From the sequence record OZ035791.1: DNA of 40,766 nt; one strand, 5' to 3'. Positions 34,820 through 40,766 of the stretch are shown one piece after another. The notes under the pieces are model-generated. The model was not told the origin of the DNA. It worked only from the letters and a program-made list of their open reading frames with translations, and did no database searches. Source of the stretch: Kagunavirus LF7074P3. The position numbers and the translations under genes are program-made. Each line of letters starts with the position of its first letter. The stretch's first letter is position 1.

Positions 34820-35005
34820 ATGTTTAAGAAGGGTCAGTTGGTGAGAACCAGACACCATGGCAAAGGTGTAATTAAGCACGTTTCGCAGAGAGTTGCAGAT
34901 AGGTATCTTCTTACCAATCCGTATTGGGATTTTGATATGTATTTCCAGGGACGCGAAATAGTAGAGCTCATCGGCAACAATTTTAAATTCAAAGGGGCGA
35001 AGTGA
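34820..35005 (+). CDS. hypothetical small protein
   Basis: 61-aa ORF, RBS GAGGAG. Confidence 0.5.
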   Translation: MFKKGQLVRTRHHGKGVIKHVSQRVADRYLLTNPYWDFDMYFQGREIVELIGNNFKFKGAK

Positions 35006-35190
35006 TGGAAGAATTAATTTACGACGTATACGTCGACGGGGTCATAACAGAGACGACAAGTAATAAAGATTACGCAATAAAGCGGTATGTGTATTATGCC
35101 GCAGTGGTAGGAAGGATGGTAGAAGTGCGGGAGCAAACGGCATCGAATCATGATGCTCGTGCCGACGACTCTGAGGGAGGTTGCCGTTAA
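35005..35190 (+). CDS. hypothetical small protein
   Basis: ATG 35005 overlapping previous stop; RBS AGGGG. Confidence 0.45.
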   Translation: MEELIYDVYVDGVITETTSNKDYAIKRYVYYAAVVGRMVEVREQTASNHDARADDSEGGCR

Positions 35191-35345
35191 TGCGAATCCG
35201 TATAACTGACCGCAGGCTTATAGATTTCGGTATCTCGGTAGGTGATGTTTTTCTGGCGTTCAGCAGCAACCATTATGGTTTTATGATTGAGTACAAAGGG
35301 TCGTTATTGTTCGTGTATCGGGATGAATGTGAGGTTCTGGTATGA
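35190..35345 (+). CDS. hypothetical small protein (51 aa)
   Basis: TAATG overlap, RBS GAGGGAGG; not in ORF track. Confidence 0.4.
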   Translation: MRIRITDRRLIDFGISVGDVFLAFSSNHYGFMIEYKGSLLFVYRDECEVLV

Positions 35346-35485
35346 GAGAAGCATTTGAACGGTGGGCTGTGGTCGAGGGTCTGCCGGTTAACAAGGGTTC
35401 AAAGAAAGAGTACCTGAACGTTAAGACCCGTCTCGCGTGGCGGGCGTTGAAAGCTGGTGTGTTGTCTGTTGCGAATCCGAGGTGA
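35342..35485 (+). CDS. hypothetical small protein (47 aa)
   Basis: ATGA overlap with upstream ORF; not in ORF track. Confidence 0.35.
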   Translation: MREAFERWAVVEGLPVNKGSKKEYLNVKTRLAWRALKAGVLSVANPR

Positions 35486-35488
35486 GAT

Positions 35489-35689
35489 ATGAGCGAGTGG
35501 ATTAAGTGTAGTGAGATGCTGCCAGGTAATGGGTATACGGATAAAGAGTTCCTGGTGTATGAAACGTTAAATAACGCAGTTCAGCACGATTATTACATAG
35601 TTCCTGATGACGGGAGAAAGCCTTTCTGGAATCACTACGATAAGTACGTGACGCACTGGATGCCGTTACCCGAGCCGCCAGAAGTGTGA
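35489..35689 (+). CDS. hypothetical protein (DUF551-like C-terminus)
   Basis: 66 aa ending ...VTHWMPLPEPPEV, reminiscent of DUF551 phage proteins (recall-based). Confidence 0.45.
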   Translation: MSEWIKCSEMLPGNGYTDKEFLVYETLNNAVQHDYYIVPDDGRKPFWNHYDKYVTHWMPLPEPPEV

Positions 35690-35822
35690 TGTTCAATAGT
35701 TTGGGATCTTACTGAGTGACTTACGCTGCTACACAGCAGCGTACAACTTTAACTTAGTGTCGTCAAAGGCGACACTTTCATCAAACGCAACAATCGAAGC
35801 GACTATTGCAGGAGATGCAACA

Positions 35823-35996
35823 ATGATTACTAAAGAACAGGCTGAACGACTAATCACGTTAATCGACACGATGATTGACGTAAAAACCGATTTAGCAACG
35901 GCAACAGAGGAATCCGCTACCTGGTCGCTTGAAGAAAGAGAAGCAGAAGCGGAAAGGGAGTTACTGGCGTTCATCGACTCTATAACACACCAATAA
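35823..35996 (+). CDS. hypothetical small protein
   Basis: ATG 35823 with GGAG 8 nt upstream; in frame with track ORF 35757..35996. Confidence 0.4.
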   Translation: MITKEQAERLITLIDTMIDVKTDLATATEESATWSLEEREAEAERELLAFIDSITHQ

Positions 35997-36003
35997 AATT
36001 TAC

Positions 36004-36032
36004 TTGCACACTAAGATAGAATAGGCTACTAT
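36004..36032 (+). promoter_or_regulatory. sigma70-like promoter TTGCAC-N17-TACTAT with ATAG-N4-CTATTCA dyad
   Basis: aCTTGCACactaagatagAATAGGCTACTATTCA, 32 nt upstream of gene at 36064. Confidence 0.6.
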
Positions 36033-36063
36033 TCATTTACACAAACGAGAGGGGAGACAGAAT

Positions 36064-36612
36064 ATGAAAGATTATAGCGAAGTAACTTTAGGTGAGTTGC
36101 AGGACGAGTACGAAGATATGCTCTACCCGTTCATCTGCGACGGGGACTACAACGGCGTCTATAACGGGGTGAGCGAAGACCTGGCGCATGAGGTGCAGAT
36201 TAAGGAGTTGCGGGAAGACAACATTAAGAAATCTGAGCACATATCGCACCTAACAGGGCAAGTTAAGGAGTTGCGTCTGGCATTGGCCAAGGCTACTGGT
36301 GACGTGGAGGCATACAAACTTATCCGCAAAGGTGCGTACGGTTCGGAGCAATCTGGTTGCCGAAAAGAAGATACGCAGGAATGTGACCACAATTGGATTA
36401 TCGCTCCAGGATTGTTTATTGCCGAAGGCCACAAGGACAACGTGCCCGGTAGCCTGTTTTGCTGCGAATGCGGCAAGCGTGAGTGGGACGGACTTGAGTA
36501 TGGGCCAACAGCCTGTACACGGGAGTGCAAACACAGTTTCTATTATGTAATAACAGATGGCTCCGCGCCGTTCGGTACGAAAGTATGTAAAACGTGCGGG
36601 GAATACTTCTGA
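36064..36612 (+). CDS. Cys-rich (zinc-ribbon-like) hypothetical protein
   Basis: 182 aa; N-terminal coiled-coil-like region, C-terminal CxxC...CxxC clusters. Confidence 0.5.
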   Translation: MKDYSEVTLGELQDEYEDMLYPFICDGDYNGVYNGVSEDLAHEVQIKELREDNIKKSEHISHLTGQVKELRLALAKATGDVEAYKLIRKGAYGSEQSGCRKEDTQECDHNWIIAPGLFIAEGHKDNVPGSLFCCECGKREWDGLEYGPTACTRECKHSFYYVITDGSAPFGTKVCKTCGEYF

Positions 36613-36815
36613 TGACCAGCATCTTATTTATCTGGGTGCTGTCCACGGGTCAGATGCATCTGGCGGCATCAGAAACGTTTTACTCGATGGAGGCGTGCCA
36701 GTCAGCGGCACGCGCCGCAGAGAACGCGCACTTCCTGTTTCAGGGTGACAAGCCTAACGATTCAGAGGTACGCGCTATCTGCTCACCTAAACGTATTGGT
36801 AAACAGGAGAAATAA
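36612..36815 (+). CDS. small secreted/membrane-anchored protein
   Basis: 67 aa from ATG 36612 (overlaps upstream stop); N-terminal hydrophobic signal-like segment MTSILFIWVLSTGQMHLAAS. Confidence 0.45.
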   Translation: MTSILFIWVLSTGQMHLAASETFYSMEACQSAARAAENAHFLFQGDKPNDSEVRAICSPKRIGKQEK

Positions 36816-36816
36816 C

Positions 36817-37020
36817 ATGGTACAGAGATATTTATTACAAGGCGGTTTAATTGGGCCGCACGACGCAGGTGATTGGGTTGGCTATGAAGATTACGCAAAA
36901 CTTGAGGCCGCCGTTATCGCCTTACTTATGGATATAAATCGACGCTACCCTGGAGAAGGGTTTAAGTGCCCGTTAATACTTAAACTCGCGGAGATTGTGG
37001 AACATGAGCCTGGCAACTGA
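36817..37020 (+). CDS. hypothetical small protein
   Basis: ATG 36817 with AGGAG upstream; 67 aa. Confidence 0.45.
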   Translation: MVQRYLLQGGLIGPHDAGDWVGYEDYAKLEAAVIALLMDINRRYPGEGFKCPLILKLAEIVEHEPGN

Positions 37021-37297
37021 CATCCTTAAACGCAGCGGCCTTGCGCCGCTGTCGCCGAGAGCGAATACACGAATACACAAGCGCCGCCGTAATGCACTGT
37101 ACCCCGAGATTCAGGCCAGGCGCAAAGCGGTCCGCGCCTGTGGATTCCAGAACGGGAAGGCCGTGAATCTCGGTGAGTTTAAAACGCAGGAACGTGCAGC
37201 TATCGCTAATCGGCTATTTAATTACTGGAAATCGCTGGGGTACGTGGATATTCCGACGAAACCACAGAGACGACAATACATCTGGCGGCATAAATAA
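37004..37297 (+). CDS. AP2-like DNA-binding domain protein (putative)
   Basis: ...GFQNGKAVNLGEFKTQERAAIANRLF... resembles AP2/ERF-type three-strand + helix DNA-binding domains found in phage proteins (recall-based). Confidence 0.4.
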   Translation: MSLATDILKRSGLAPLSPRANTRIHKRRRNALYPEIQARRKAVRACGFQNGKAVNLGEFKTQERAAIANRLFNYWKSLGYVDIPTKPQRRQYIWRHK

Positions 37298-37372: not shown

Positions 37373-37681
37373 TTGGATAAATTTACTGAAACAGTGACAG
37401 GCTGGCTTCTCGCCGCCGCGCTCGCCGGAGGGGTCATCGGACTACGACAACATAAGTCCGTTATTTCTGGCCCTATCGACGGATTCTGCTTTATTGCTAC
37501 TGGTTTCGCCTGCGCTGTATTTGGCGCACCTCTCGCGGCTCAATGGTTCGGTATCACGGGCGACCGTGAAATCGCTGGCCTTGGCTTCATCATCGCTATT
37601 CTCTGGATGCCTATCTATTCCCGTCTCTCCAGTATCGTCGCTGGAGAATACATCGCACGTCGAGGAGGCACAGATGAATGA
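37373..37681 (+). CDS. holin (3-TMD, class I-like)
   Basis: 102 aa with three hydrophobic segments and charged C-terminus; TTG start; directly upstream of lysozyme gene. Confidence 0.6.
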   Translation: MDKFTETVTGWLLAAALAGGVIGLRQHKSVISGPIDGFCFIATGFACAVFGAPLAAQWFGITGDREIAGLGFIIAILWMPIYSRLSSIVAGEYIARRGGTDE

Positions 37682-37946
37682 GTTATTCTGGTTCGGCGGT
37701 ATGCTGGCAATCGGCGGCACATCGCTGTTTAATGTATACCATCCGAGCGTGGATGACGGGCTATTTGGTCGGGTGCTCTATATCCTGACTGCTATCGTCT
37801 GCGCTGCCGGATGTATCCACCTGTTACAGGGCAGCATGTCGCCGACGCTGCCTGAGACATTAATCACATTAGTTGCGCTGCGTCAGATTCGTCAGGCGTG
37901 GCTGTCATACGGAGGACATAAGCGTGTCTCGAAACATTTCAGATAA
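37674..37946 (+). CDS. second holin-like 2-TMD membrane protein (holin/antiholin candidate)
   Basis: 90 aa from ATG 37674 with strong RBS AGGAGG; two hydrophobic segments; overlaps both neighbours. Confidence 0.5.
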   Translation: MNELFWFGGMLAIGGTSLFNVYHPSVDDGLFGRVLYILTAIVCAAGCIHLLQGSMSPTLPETLITLVALRQIRQAWLSYGGHKRVSKHFR

Positions 37947-38412
37947 TGGATTGCATTTTACCGCCGCGTTTGAGGGGTTCCGCGGAACTGCGTATCGTGC
38001 TACGCCATCGGAAAAATACTTAACTACAGGCTACGGTCATTACGGGCCGGACGTGGCCCCAGGCAAGACCATCACGCCAGGGCAAGGCCTCCTGTTACTG
38101 AACCGTGATATGGCTAAGGCCGTAGCTGCGGTTGACGCAGCGGCGCACCATTCGCTAACACAGGCGCAGTTTGATGCAGTGTGCGACCTGGTCTATAACG
38201 CGGGGGCCGGCGTTATTTCGGCTACTACCGGTACAGGTAAGGCACTGCGCTCCGGTGATATCGCGACGTTACGGGCTAAACTGGCGCTGTTCATCAACCA
38301 GAACGGCAAACCGTTACTGGGCCTTCGCCGCCGTACCGCCGGTCGCCTGGCGCTGTTTGACGGTAAACCGTGGCAAGAGGCGGAGGCTATCGGGCGCGCG
38401 GTGAAAGGTTGA
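37924..38412 (+). CDS. endolysin (phage lysozyme, GH24-like)
   Basis: ...AFEGFRGTAYRATPSEKYLTTGYGHYG... lysozyme-like catalytic region; GTG 37924 with AGGAGGA upstream. Confidence 0.7.
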   Translation: MSRNISDNGLHFTAAFEGFRGTAYRATPSEKYLTTGYGHYGPDVAPGKTITPGQGLLLLNRDMAKAVAAVDAAAHHSLTQAQFDAVCDLVYNAGAGVISATTGTGKALRSGDIATLRAKLALFINQNGKPLLGLRRRTAGRLALFDGKPWQEAEAIGRAVKG

Positions 38413-38476: not shown

Positions 38477-38509
38477 ATCCCGGCCCTGACCCAGCCGGGA
38501 TTTTTTTTA
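38477..38509 (+). terminator. strong rho-independent terminator
   Basis: TCCCGGC-loop-GCCGGGA hairpin followed by T8. Confidence 0.85.
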
Positions 38510-38530: not shown

Positions 38531-38559
38531 TTGACTATTATCCTAGACCCTACTATATT
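38531..38559 (+). promoter_or_regulatory. sigma70-like promoter TTGACT-N17-TATATT
   Basis: Hexamers with 17-nt spacer, 34 nt upstream of ATG 38593. Confidence 0.55.
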
Positions 38560-38592
38560 TACTTCATCGACAACGAGAACGGAGTAGAGAAG

Positions 38593-38742
38593 ATGAAAAT
38601 CACAGATACCGAAGCATTCGAAGACGCGCAACTGATGGCGCGCATTGCCGTTAGTCACCGGGGTGGGAGCATTCCCGCGGACTCGTTCTGGTTCGCTGCG
38701 ATGCAGACACTGAAAGCAGCTTATGCAGGAGAGAAGAAATGA
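38593..38742 (+). CDS. hypothetical small protein (49 aa)
   Basis: RBS GGAG; first of nine translationally coupled small ORFs. Confidence 0.4.
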   Translation: MKITDTEAFEDAQLMARIAVSHRGGSIPADSFWFAAMQTLKAAYAGEKK

Positions 38743-38933
38743 AAAATATAGTCCCAGAAGTCGGTAAAGGTTGCTTCGTTGTTTCTTATTTCGATGGGGA
38801 CGAGTACGTTGATTGCGGCCAGTTTCATCAATCTGGTGATGCTGGTGCTTACGCCGCGAAGTTAGTAGGTACTACGCCACTGGAAGACATTCGTATTGTA
38901 TTCAATATGGAACTTGCAGGAGATAAGAAATGA
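38739..38933 (+). CDS. hypothetical small protein
   Basis: 64-aa ORF, ATGA overlap. Confidence 0.45.
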   Translation: MKNIVPEVGKGCFVVSYFDGDEYVDCGQFHQSGDAGAYAAKLVGTTPLEDIRIVFNMELAGDKK

Positions 38934-39088
38934 GCGAACACGGTGAAGTAAGCCAACCATTACGAGTAGGCCGTAAAGTCAGTCACACCCCGTTCCCGAC
39001 ACGCGAGGAACTGATGAAACGTAATAGTTTCCCGGGGCCGGACAAGAACAAGTATCTCAATCGCATGTGGGGAGAGCGTAAAGAATGA
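38930..39088 (+). CDS. hypothetical small protein (52 aa)
   Basis: ATGA overlap with neighbours. Confidence 0.35.
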   Translation: MSEHGEVSQPLRVGRKVSHTPFPTREELMKRNSFPGPDKNKYLNRMWGERKE

Positions 39089-39258
39089 CTAACAACGAAT
39101 ACGAGAAACTTAGCGTCGAATCTGCGACCGGTGAATCAGAAATAGCATGGATTGACGCCCACATTGAGCACTACTTACGGCAAGTAGACGCCCTTATGGA
39201 ACGCCGCCGCGAGCTGATTAACCGCTTCAACCTGAACAAAGGTGACACCAATGCCTAA
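39085..39258 (+). CDS. hypothetical small protein (57 aa)
   Basis: ATGA overlap with upstream ORF. Confidence 0.35.
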   Translation: MTNNEYEKLSVESATGESEIAWIDAHIEHYLRQVDALMERRRELINRFNLNKGDTNA

Positions 39259-39454
39259 AATCACAATCGCATCACTCGAGCGCCGTATTCTGGTGCTTGA
39301 GTCAGAGAAACAGACGTTAGGCGGACAACTGTCAATTAACGGTGAGTTTCAGCTGGAGGCGTTTAAGTTGTTGCTCGGGAAATTGAAGGAAGAAGAGCAG
39401 AAGCTACTACTCTCCCCTGAGTTCGATTACGGTGTTGATGATGAAAGCGCCTGA
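39251..39454 (+). CDS. hypothetical small protein (coiled-coil-like)
   Basis: ATG 39251 overlapping upstream stop. Confidence 0.4.
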   Translation: MPKITIASLERRILVLESEKQTLGGQLSINGEFQLEAFKLLLGKLKEEEQKLLLSPEFDYGVDDESA

Positions 39455-39623
39455 ACCCGTAGTTATCGATGGCGTCCTGTGGAAACCATACTCGGTTAAC
39501 CACATCGACGCCGACGGGAAGAAGTTCAGCTTCTACATTTTTGCAATTAGCCGTGAGCACGCCGCTTGTGTGGTTGATGATATACGAGAAACAGCGTGGC
39601 TTGGTGATGAGATAGTGGGGTGA
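39438..39623 (+). CDS. hypothetical small protein
   Basis: ATG 39438 in frame with track ORF 39432..39623. Confidence 0.4.
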   Translation: MMKAPEPVVIDGVLWKPYSVNHIDADGKKFSFYIFAISREHAACVVDDIRETAWLGDEIVG

Positions 39624-39627
39624 GAGT

Positions 39628-39798
39628 ATGTTCAGTGACATCAACGCAGCAATCGAAGAAGCAATCTGGCGCAGATACAACGGCGAGCAACAACGGCACT
39701 TCTGCCTGGTGCAACGTGGAAACATGATTGCCGTAGTGCAGGACCGCGATAACAAATATCCGAATGCGATGTGGACAACGAGGAATTTTGTAGGATGA
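39628..39798 (+). CDS. hypothetical small protein (56 aa)
   Basis: Uninterrupted frame, coupled to next ORF by ATGA. Confidence 0.35.
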   Translation: MFSDINAAIEEAIWRRYNGEQQRHFCLVQRGNMIAVVQDRDNKYPNAMWTTRNFVG

Positions 39799-40031
39799 TT
39801 ACCAGCATTCCGAACCTGATTAAAGAATACGGCACGATGGCGGAGACATGCCGACAAACCGGCATCAACGAAATGACGATTGCCAAGTACCGCAACGACG
39901 TGAACTGCGAGCGCCACGTAATTTATAACAACCGTCTTATGACGCACGTTAAGACAAGCCCGGTGTTATTCACGCGCCGTGGTATCACTAAAACTGAGCA
40001 ACGTATTGCTAAAGAGGAGAGCGGAGAATGA
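39795..40031 (+). CDS. hypothetical protein with HTH-like segment
   Basis: 78 aa from ATG 39795; ...TCRQTGINEMTIAKYRN... Confidence 0.4.
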   Translation: MITSIPNLIKEYGTMAETCRQTGINEMTIAKYRNDVNCERHVIYNNRLMTHVKTSPVLFTRRGITKTEQRIAKEESGE

Positions 40032-40129
40032 GACTGCTAACCATTCCGAATGCCTGGGCTATTGCCGTAGCTAACGACCATTACGGCGGCGGTGGTAAAA
40101 GAGCACCACGACATGGCCTATACAACTGA
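40028..40129 (+). CDS. hypothetical small protein (33 aa)
   Basis: ATGA overlap with upstream ORF; followed by terminator. Confidence 0.25.
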   Translation: MRLLTIPNAWAIAVANDHYGGGGKRAPRHGLYN

Positions 40130-40133
40130 TACA

Positions 40134-40156
40134 AGCCCTCTACGGAGGGCTTTTCT
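40134..40156 (+). terminator. rho-independent terminator
   Basis: AGCCCTC-TACG-GAGGGCT hairpin + TTTT. Confidence 0.75.
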
Positions 40157-40185
40157 GTACATCCTGCCTAATCCCCTTATATAAT
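40156..40185 (+). promoter_or_regulatory. candidate late promoter (weak -35 TGTACA, consensus -10 TATAAT)
   Basis: TATAAT at 40180-40185; upstream of terS. Confidence 0.35.
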
Positions 40186-40191
40186 CCCTTT

Positions 40192-40235
40192 AGACGCGTA
40201 GGGCGCGTCTGATGCGCTCTGATGGTCAGACGCAT
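40192..40235. repeat. clustered inverted and direct repeats (AGACGCG/CGCGTCT; TCTGATG x2; AGACGC x2)
   Basis: AGACGCGtagggCGCGTCTGATGCGCTCTGATGGTCAGACGCAT, flanked by 9-bp inverted repeat AATCCCCTT (40170-40178) / AAGGGGATT (40240-40248). Confidence 0.8.
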
Positions 40236-40250
40236 ACGCAAGGGGATTCT

Positions 40251-40766
40251 ATGAAGCTGAAACTCAAGCAGCCATCGCCAGAGGTGGTGCAAGCTGCACA
40301 TGAAGAAGCTGTTAGCGCAAACCGTCGACGTAAACGACCGCGCGGTAAACAGAGCCTTTATCAATCGTCCCGTAATTCCGCCGCGTTGTGGGACCCGGAC
40401 TATTGCGACGAATTGATTCGTTTCTTCGACCGCACGTCATGGGAGTCTATGCCGACCGGTGCACACGGAGACTACAAAGCTGTCATTGCGGACAAGCCAC
40501 CGTCACTGGCCCGCTTTGCATTGCACATCGGCGTCACTATCCCGATTATTAAGTTGTGGCTGCGTGAGATTCCAGCTTTTGCAGAAGCATATGAAACAGC
40601 ACAGGCGCTGGAAGAGGCATACTTCACTGAGACGGGGGCCGCGGGTATCTCCGCTACGTTTGCTGCCGCGAAGCTGGGCCTCGGTAAAGAGAAACCAGTT
40701 GAATCTACAGAAGAAACAGCACCGACTGAGATTATTTTCAGTGTTGCAGAGCCTGTAGGTAAAATC
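40251..40766 (+). CDS. terS: terminase small subunit (putative), 3'-truncated by window end
   Basis: ATG 40251 with RBS AAGGGGA; frame open for 172 codons to the last base; basic N-terminus RRRKRPRGK; position immediately before terL if ends are joined. Confidence 0.6.
   Translation, partial: MKLKLKQPSPEVVQAAHEEAVSANRRRKRPRGKQSLYQSSRNSAALWDPDYCDELIRFFDRTSWESMPTGAHGDYKAVIADKPPSLARFALHIGVTIPIIKLWLREIPAFAEAYETAQALEEAYFTETGAAGISATFAAAKLGLGKEKPVESTEETAPTEIIFSVAEPVGKI

Follow-up and report, generated by a model that had tools for sequence, protein, structure and literature searches.

The nin region of lambda (ninB–ninI) and of P22 (ninA–ninZ) is made of small, overlapping and mostly dispensable genes that lie between the replication genes and Q. 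The accessory regions described by Silas et al. (bioRxiv 10.1101/2023.04.06.535777) have conserved flanks around variable small genes; these turn over fast, with unrelated genes in one slot, and they include genes with demonstrated counter-defence or trigger activity. Closer still, a small-gene block of the Guernseyvirinae has been described in a genome paper (PMC9825357), and it is annotated in both Kagunavirus and Jerseyvirus records. Here we analyse this block in Kagunavirus LF7074P3 (sequence record OZ035791.1), where nine small genes on the plus strand occupy positions 38593–40129, between the lysis genes and terS, the gene of the small terminase subunit. The window that we analysed is the whole stretch of 40,766 nucleotides (nt). 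We conclude, with a probability of about 0.7, that these small genes make up a single accessory operon. A variable block of this sort is usual in the family, whose E. coli and Salmonella phages are well sampled, and as such the finding is largely ordinary.

How does the block compare with these systems? In other Guernseyvirinae (Kagunavirus JSSK01, EC3-1, ULINTec2 and fBC-Eco01; Jerseyvirus Jersey, SE2 and vB_SenS-Ent1) it has the same position, flanks and core order, with protein identities of 64–100% to the block here, which differs from them in having the rare gene o2 and in lacking several of their cassettes. The records of JSSK01, EC3-1 and ULINTec2 annotate each gene of the homologous block, in most cases as a hypothetical protein. 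Like the nin region the block consists of small, overlapping genes, and NinH- and NinZ-like proteins are common to both; yet it shares just these two of about ten nin families, and is without NinB, NinG and NinI. The two genes are adjacent in P22, where their order is the reverse of the NinZ-like then NinH-like order found here. Moreover, the block sits after the lysis genes and before terS, and has its own predicted promoter and terminators, independent of N antitermination. With the accessory regions of Silas et al. it shares the fast turnover of small genes and the use of one slot by unrelated genes, but it keeps a stable four-gene core where the regions described there are fully variable, and any counter-defence or trigger activity of its genes is hypothetical. 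The main text of that study mentions none of Kagunavirus, Guernseyvirinae, Jersey, K1G or NinH. A first-pass annotation of this DNA had held that the block is not explained by known modules. That view does not stand, given the published description and the annotated relatives; in addition eight of the nine genes (all except o2) fall in PHROG families, and three have lambdoid relatives, namely NinH, NinZ and DUF2737 (P22 orf56).

The interval is tiled completely by nine same-strand open reading frames (ORFs) of 33–78 amino acids (aa), o1 to o9, exactly at the coordinates that the first-pass annotation had given for a chain of nine. Six of the nine are shorter than 60 aa. Several had been called absent from the ORF track; they are indeed below 60 aa, and their absence reflects merely a listing threshold of that length. 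Five junctions are ATGA overlaps (o1/o2, o2/o3, o3/o4, o7/o8 and o8/o9). Longer overlaps, of 8 and 14 nt, are found at o4/o5 and o5/o6, respectively, and o6 is followed by a 4-nt spacer before o7. Thus the ATGA part of the chaining reported earlier is present, but the TAATG part is not, occurring at none of the eight junctions of the array. The Shine–Dalgarno (SD) match lies within the top ∼12% of ATG contexts for seven of the nine starts, and is weak only at o5 and o6, the two starts with long overlaps; each SD sequence sits within the 3′ end of the preceding gene. The layout of the junctions is consistent with the translational coupling that had been proposed. ORFs of at least 30 aa cover 100% of the plus strand, whereas in 1000 shuffles the mean coverage was 55% and the highest 88%.

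For comparison we used 51 related loci from IMG/VR, collected with o8 as anchor. Essentially all of them, including Jersey-like loci at 64–78% identity, have o1, o3, o4 and o8, which form the core; o5, o6, o7 and o9 are found in 34–40 loci, and o2 in two. The pooled Nei–Gojobori ratios of nonsynonymous to synonymous substitution rates (dN/dS) for o1 to o9 are 0.15, 0.14 (from three sequences only), 0.21, 0.27, 0.36, 0.065, 0.05, 0.17 and 0.12, respectively. For all of the frames the start, stop and length are kept in nearly every locus. A loss of frame in related genomes was the observation that the first-pass annotation had named as telling against it; instead the frames are conserved and evolve under purifying selection. 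As a control we examined the longest ORF of the region, a 194-aa frame on the minus strand (39363–39947) that spans o5–o8. It is intact in 0 of 44 aligned loci, and is therefore a shadow ORF rather than a gene. A search of Rfam for known non-coding RNA in the block gave only two sub-threshold, terminator-like matches. Because of the purifying selection and the conservation of frame, we take all nine ORFs to be genuine small-protein genes.

The genes are flanked by regulatory elements, all on the plus strand, that are better conserved than much of what lies between them. An intrinsic terminator is predicted after the endolysin gene (38477–38508; stem AUCCCGGC/GCCGGGAU, 9-nt loop, U8 tail), with a fold energy of −13.8 kcal/mol. 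Kaguna- and Jersey-like loci have kept it, and its stem shows a compensatory change from CCCGGC/GCCGGG to CCCGGTA/TACCGGG. The sigma-70-type promoter P1, which had been placed at 38531–38559, is recovered there by our scan as TTGACT-17-TATATT (10 of 12 consensus positions), ranking second among the sigma-70 matches of the region. Its −35 and −10 hexamers are unchanged in eight aligned loci from both genera, and the P1 module is >90% identical across 39 Kagunavirus-like loci. The 33-nt 5′ leader that follows (38560–38592; CATCGACAACGAGAACGGAGTAGAGAAG) holds the GGAG SD of the first cistron, and is almost invariant in the same eight loci, even in loci such as L028 that begin with another gene. 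The terminator reported at the end of the array (40134–40156) is confirmed as a prediction at 40133–40158, with stem AAGCCCUC/GAGGGCUU, loop UACG and tail UUUCUGU; the hairpin (40133–40152) with its tail folds at −15.6 kcal/mol. It is 95–98% identical in 38 loci, and in Jersey-like loci the stem has undergone a compensatory change from CCCTC/GAGGG to CCCGC/GCGGG. Our consensus scan passed over both terminators, the upstream one for its 9-nt loop and the closing one for a T-run of four instead of five. The tail of the closing terminator is overlapped by P2, a promoter-like site for terS (40156–40185; TGTACA-18-TATAAT, 10 of 12 positions in the scan), whose −35 hexamer is invariant in both genera and which forms the downstream boundary of the block. 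Taken together the regulatory flanks are 90–98% identical among Kagunavirus loci.

What varies is the interior. Across 36 loci with both flanks the interval ranges from 1.2 to 3.0 kb and contains 57 small-ORF families, although the gene order o1–o3–o4–(o5)–(o6)–(o7)–o8–(o9) is fixed. At least eight unrelated families use the o1|o3 slot. Cassettes added in relatives are invariably downstream of P1, and would therefore be part of the same transcription unit. Phage accessory regions are marked by variable small genes between conserved flanks (bioRxiv 10.1101/2023.04.06.535777), and this is the pattern that we find here. The comparison of loci shows a conserved scaffold between invariant regulatory flanks; small cassettes come and go at the junctions between genes, in some cases where a short junction sequence is repeated. 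The locus is thus a compact and heavily sampled example of the turnover of small phage genes between fixed regulatory flanks.

The rare cassette o2 (38739–38933, 64 aa), lying between o1 and o3, is bracketed exactly by a 19-nt direct repeat TGCAGGAGAKAAGAAATGA (family D1) with a spacing of 191 nt. The left copy, TGCAGGAGAGAAGAAATGA (38724–38742), comprises the 3′ end of o1 with the SD and start of o2, and the right copy, TGCAGGAGATAAGAAATGA (38915–38933), the 3′ end of o2 with the SD and start of o3. Loci that lack o2 have a single copy of the repeat with o1 joined directly to o3, and one locus (L029) has an unrelated cassette (family 47) at the o1|o3 junction with the same repeats. The exact flanking, the single copy in loci lacking o2 and the cassette of L029 together suggest that o2 was gained or lost by recombination at the junction sequences. 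Junction repeats are not a general rule: the o1-type junction accompanies only two of the eight cassette families that occupy the o1|o3 slot. The protein itself has no match in Pfam, PHROG or NCBIfam. Of 50,697 phage records, 3 contain its gene; two of these are the same phage as the window, and the third (PQ579973.1) leaves it unannotated. There are 18 protein clusters, all at least 80% identical; the length is 64 aa in 16 of these, and 65 and 67 aa in the others. A profile search of 1.84 billion representative proteins returned its own cluster and a fragment only. Thus o2 is a lineage-restricted orphan.

Among the core genes, o8 (39795–40031, 78 aa) encodes a predicted helix-turn-helix (HTH) protein that is best described as a divergent member of the NinH family. 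Pairwise BLASTP aligns it with lambda NinH at 33% identity over 51 aa (E = 1e-9). It scores 24.3 bits with the Pfam NinH model (PF06322; E = 3e-5), under the gathering cut-off of 29.8 bits, but relatives of 78–96% identity (P0053 and P0055 at 96%) have precomputed PF06322 matches, and one of these is named ‘Protein ninH’ by one source. Lambda NinH, a Fis-like mimic of nucleoid-associated proteins, forms dimers and both binds and bends DNA (PMC7166090). An AlphaFold2 (AF2) model of o8, with a predicted local distance difference test (pLDDT) score of 75, has helices at residues 5–12, 15–22 and 26–31 and strands at 41–44 and 47–50 that form a β-hairpin. This predicted architecture fits that of lambda NinH, a three-helix HTH followed by C-terminal β-strands used for dimerisation. 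Residues T32, K35, H45 and H55 of lambda NinH are preserved in the alignment as o8 T28, K31, H41 and H51, so that both dimerisation histidines (H45 and H55) have their counterparts; among 19 members of the o8 family T28, K31 and H51 are invariant, and H41 nearly so. The o8 protein probably binds DNA as a dimer.

The core gene o4 (39085–39258, 57 aa) encodes a NinZ-like, helix-rich, acidic protein. It is 42% identical to P22 NinZ over its C-terminal 43 aa (E = 2e-5, in a database of four loci only), and matches phrog_1402 and the N-terminal part of phrog_268; no Pfam model matched. The label ‘NinZ-like’ is used in some Jerseyvirus records. In the Jersey-like loci L044 (3372–3728), L047 and L048 the N-terminus of o4 and the o8 domain are fused in frame as one 118-aa ORF. 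It is because phrog_268 (119 positions) corresponds to this fused form that it is matched N-terminally by o4 and C-terminally by o8. In Jersey-like loci without the fusion the two genes are adjacent (L043, L051 and L052) or one gene apart, and in Kagunavirus they are split by two to six cassettes. The fusion and adjacency in the Jersey-like phages argue that o4 probably acts together with o8.

The third lambdoid relative is o3 (38930–39088, 52 aa), another core gene. It matches Pfam DUF2737 (PF10930) at 38.9 bits (cut-off 25, E = 8e-10), above the gathering cut-off, and phrog_4684 at E = 9e-33. It is homologous to P22 orf56 and HK75 gp29, both of which adjoin abc2 (anti-RecBCD) in the early-left operon. 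The literature that we searched contains no mention of DUF2737. The remaining core gene, o1 (38593–38742, 49 aa), is the first cistron; it is found in 52 of 53 loci and in 627 phage records, and belongs to phrog_2180 (E = 3e-24). One homologue is labelled ‘head protein’ in GenBank, a label without support.

The variable protein o5 (39251–39454, 67 aa; phrog_9023, E = 8e-31) has the highest dN/dS of the nine. Wide conservation is confined to the first 34 aa at its N-terminus; of 115 matching phage records, just nine cover at least 80% of the protein. In most relatives the C-terminal half is replaced, with lengths of 49–99 aa, and there is therefore a mosaic joint inside the gene. The small acidic protein o6 (39441–39623, 60 aa, or 61 if the start is at 39438; phrog_10509, E = 4e-35) is shared with ∼149-kb Enterobacter and Cronobacter myophages. 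Its AF2 model (pLDDT 84) has the topology β-β-β-α-β, for which a Foldseek search of the PDB gave nothing significant (best E = 0.9). Two identities were considered for o6. A p56-like uracil-DNA-glycosylase inhibitor is unsupported (Foldseek E ∼1, template modelling (TM) score ∼0.4), and we reject an RNA polymerase (RNAP) inhibitor of the T7 Gp2 type (BLASTP E = 0.16, hhalign probability 0.6%); T7 Gp2 is not within the top 50 Foldseek PDB matches. The labels of o6 homologues conflict, being ‘putative RNA polymerase inhibitor’ in ULINTec2 (L059) and ‘host nuclease inhibitor’ elsewhere, and neither is supported.

The protein o7 (39628–39798, 56 aa; phrog_5407, E = 1e-25) is common to N4-like phages. 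Homologues that are 41–49% identical (one at 2783–2956 of locus L058) occur in N4-like Gamaleyavirus phages such as G7C, where it is gp2.4, and St11Ph5; they sit near the left genome end among small genes between the two RNAP subunit genes. The C-terminus of o7, DNKYPNAMW (39748–39780), resembles the DUF2737 core NKYLN-MW of o3 (39041–39075) and HK75 gp29. The NKY-N-MW likeness is too weak to make o7 a DUF2737 paralogue (hhalign probability 27% over 13 columns), and may be chance or a shared short motif. One o7 homologue is called ‘tail assembly protein’ in GenBank, again unsupported. The last cistron, o9 (40028–40129, 33 aa; phrog_32259, E = 4e-16), is a basic micro-protein found in 361 phage records at 50–88% identity, including T1-like Drexlerviridae, Queuovirinae and Citrobacter phages. 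It is unusually widespread for a micro-protein; 17 of the matching records are labelled as Campylobacter phages, which looks odd. Three further searches of the block proteins were negative. NCBIfam gave no matches, and a PDB sequence search with o2, o6, o7 and o8 returned nothing below E = 0.28. PADLOC, which is a library of defence and not of anti-defence proteins, gave none for eight of the genes and a marginal match of o4 to a Type I specificity subunit (E = 0.0056, 13.8 bits).

The leader of the terS promoter contains two conserved hairpins or palindromes (40192–40237). The first, AGACGCG-TAGGG-CGCGTCT, forms a perfect palindrome (7-5-7) that lies at the promoter's predicted +1 and is unique in the window; its arms are conserved in Jersey-like loci, and an arm change in L043 and L050 stays G–U compatible. 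The second hairpin, GATGCG-CTCTGA-TGG-TCAGA-CGCAT, has a compensatory C–G to A–T change in Jersey-like loci. These structures could be an RNA leader structure, the operator of a regulator or a packaging site. A regulon built upon the palindrome is rejected, as there is a single copy in the window. In the same region AATCCCCTT, within the spacer of the terS promoter (40170–40178), is perfectly complementary to the SD region of terS, AAGGGGATT (40241–40249). A read-through RNA (40120–40275) folds with the terS SD sequestered (−54.3 kcal/mol, z = −4.5), and an RNA begun at the terS promoter leaves it freer. Striking as this fold is, support for sequestration of the SD in read-through transcripts is weak, and we set the reading aside, since L003 and L024 carry uncompensated C-to-A changes in the anti-SD.

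As an operon of accessory genes the block would work as follows. The terminator after the endolysin gene would insulate it from transcription of the lysis cassette, and the host sigma-70-type promoter with its 33-nt leader would drive a single polycistronic mRNA that stops at the second intrinsic terminator, just upstream of the terS promoter. The nine cistrons on this message would be linked by termination–reinitiation. Of the products, o8 would probably bind DNA as a dimer with o4 as its probable partner; o3 would be a DUF2737 protein, a type that adjoins anti-RecBCD genes in P22-like phages, and the remainder orphan or narrowly distributed micro-proteins. The functions supplied are most likely dispensable ones in host modulation or competition, and are unlikely to be in lysis or packaging. 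The accessory reading is supported by cassettes shared with the small-gene regions of unrelated phages, such as o7 with G7C gp2.4 and o9 with T1-like phages. A number of points weigh against it. The promoter and terminators are consensus or fold predictions for which conservation, not activity, is demonstrated, and the translation of the nine ORFs, its coupling and the functions of all the proteins are likewise predictions from sequence. Conservation of o1, o3, o4 and o8 in two genera is also compatible with an important, non-accessory role. The only biochemistry is that of lambda NinH (PMC7166090). In o8 two of the DNA-contact arginines of lambda NinH are missing, R30 being replaced by an invariant E26 and R34 by A30, and N18 is T14; only T32 and K35 of the Fis-like contact set (N18, R30, T32, R34 and K35 in lambda NinH) are retained, and therefore a Fis-like sequence specificity is not to be assumed. 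Fold searches with o8 gave only non-significant HTH and Cro-like matches, with Fis absent. Finally, RNA-seq of Kagunavirus K1B4 shows that its NinH homologue is expressed and classed as ‘middle’, grouping with structural and lysis genes and not with the earliest class (PMC12645636), so that an ‘early’ role in host takeover has no support from timing. The annotation used in that study has 57 genes only, and lists five of the genes of the block (PMC12645636).

Other readings of the same data have to be weighed against an operon of accessory genes. The repeat that brackets o2 invites a more adventurous one, in which the block is an integrase-free gene-cassette array whose micro-genes are swapped between phages by recombination at ‘linkers’ formed by the SD and ATGA (the 19–23-nt repeat, for example), and in which o4 and o8 would be a two-part DNA-binding protein. 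We think this rather unlikely. An o4–o8 complex may also control the adjacent terS promoter. A separate proposal makes the block a regulatory module of the late packaging operon, with o8 and o4 binding the palindrome to time expression of terS, terL and the structural genes. The HTH protein is indeed encoded ∼220 bp upstream of terS, both genes are core in the two genera and sometimes fused, and the palindrome is perfect, unique and conserved in its arms. But there is no second operator in the window, and the G–U-keeping change in L043 and L050 together with the compensation in the neighbouring hairpin favour an RNA structure over an operator. Moreover no control of late genes is known for lambda NinH (PMC7166090), and binding by o8 is only predicted. 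We consider a role of this kind very improbable.

Might the block be specifically a counter-defence island, most of whose micro-proteins inhibit bacterial immune systems (restriction, abortive infection or RecBCD, for example)? Conserved flanks with 57 variable families between them, the layout of an accessory region (cf. bioRxiv 10.1101/2023.04.06.535777), would suit such an island, as would the position of DUF2737 homologues directly beside abc2 in P22 and HK75, and o6 is small and acidic with a weak likeness of fold to phage p56. Yet this likeness is not significant, no characterised anti-defence protein was matched, and the inhibitor labels attached to o6 homologues contradict each other. 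Kagunavirus isolates from the BASEL set are highly sensitive to restriction-modification, and variably so to Old (PMC11990801), and the core genes are without the variation usual for arms-race genes. We therefore regard this as a doubtful proposition. Another notion, that the DNA between the lysis and packaging genes is a non-coding or structural spacer in which all of the nine ORFs, or part of them, are frames due to chance, can scarcely be entertained. It could draw on the shortness of six of the ORFs, and on o2, which has no family match and goes without annotation in the only other GenBank phage that has it. However, every ORF is under purifying selection, with start, stop and length conserved in relatives and 64 aa kept in 16 of the 18 o2 clusters, the antisense control has decayed in every relative, no Rfam family fits and the tiling exceeds that of all shuffles. 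The dN/dS values, frame conservation and antisense control effectively refute it.

The genomic setting agrees with the position between the lysis cassette and terS that was assigned at first. Upstream of the block are two holins and an endolysin (37373–38412), and downstream terS begins at 40251 (phrog_3064), both identified by PHROG scans. The 1.9 kb around the block is 99.7% identical to Kagunavirus LF7074P1 (OZ035758.1), and the DNA of the block is matched by 421 phage records, almost all from Escherichia and Salmonella phages of the Guernseyvirinae. From these matches and the PHROG placement, the window is the almost complete genome of a Jersey-like siphophage of the genus Kagunavirus (Guernseyvirinae).

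The nine micro-genes merit annotation, including the 33-aa o9 and the orphan o2. The product names ‘head protein’, ‘tail assembly protein’, ‘RNA polymerase inhibitor’ and ‘host nuclease inhibitor’ in GenBank are without support; the relatives concerned are EC3-1 (L002), ULINTec2 (L059), SGP009 and PQ579973.1, in the last of which o2 has no annotation. Kagunavirus phages now have a place in the BASEL collection and serve in synthetic biology, and the block is therefore a practical one in which to test the roles of phage micro-proteins. It is probably also a safe site for the insertion of a payload. Nothing here will surprise a phage specialist; what is new is minor, namely the repeat flanking o2 and the o4–o8 fusion in Jersey-like phages, neither of them surprising.

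Two further observations concern the surroundings. A 30-aa ORF on the plus strand (40092–40184) runs across the o9 stop, the closing terminator and the terS promoter. It recurs in relatives solely because the regulatory DNA beneath it is conserved, and is in all likelihood no gene. Upstream of the holins, at 34820–37297 on the plus strand, there is a further run of small genes (PHROGs 12538, 30617, 924, 6094, 23083 and 9632). The first-pass annotation had entitled the present block a second array, and this run is presumably the first.

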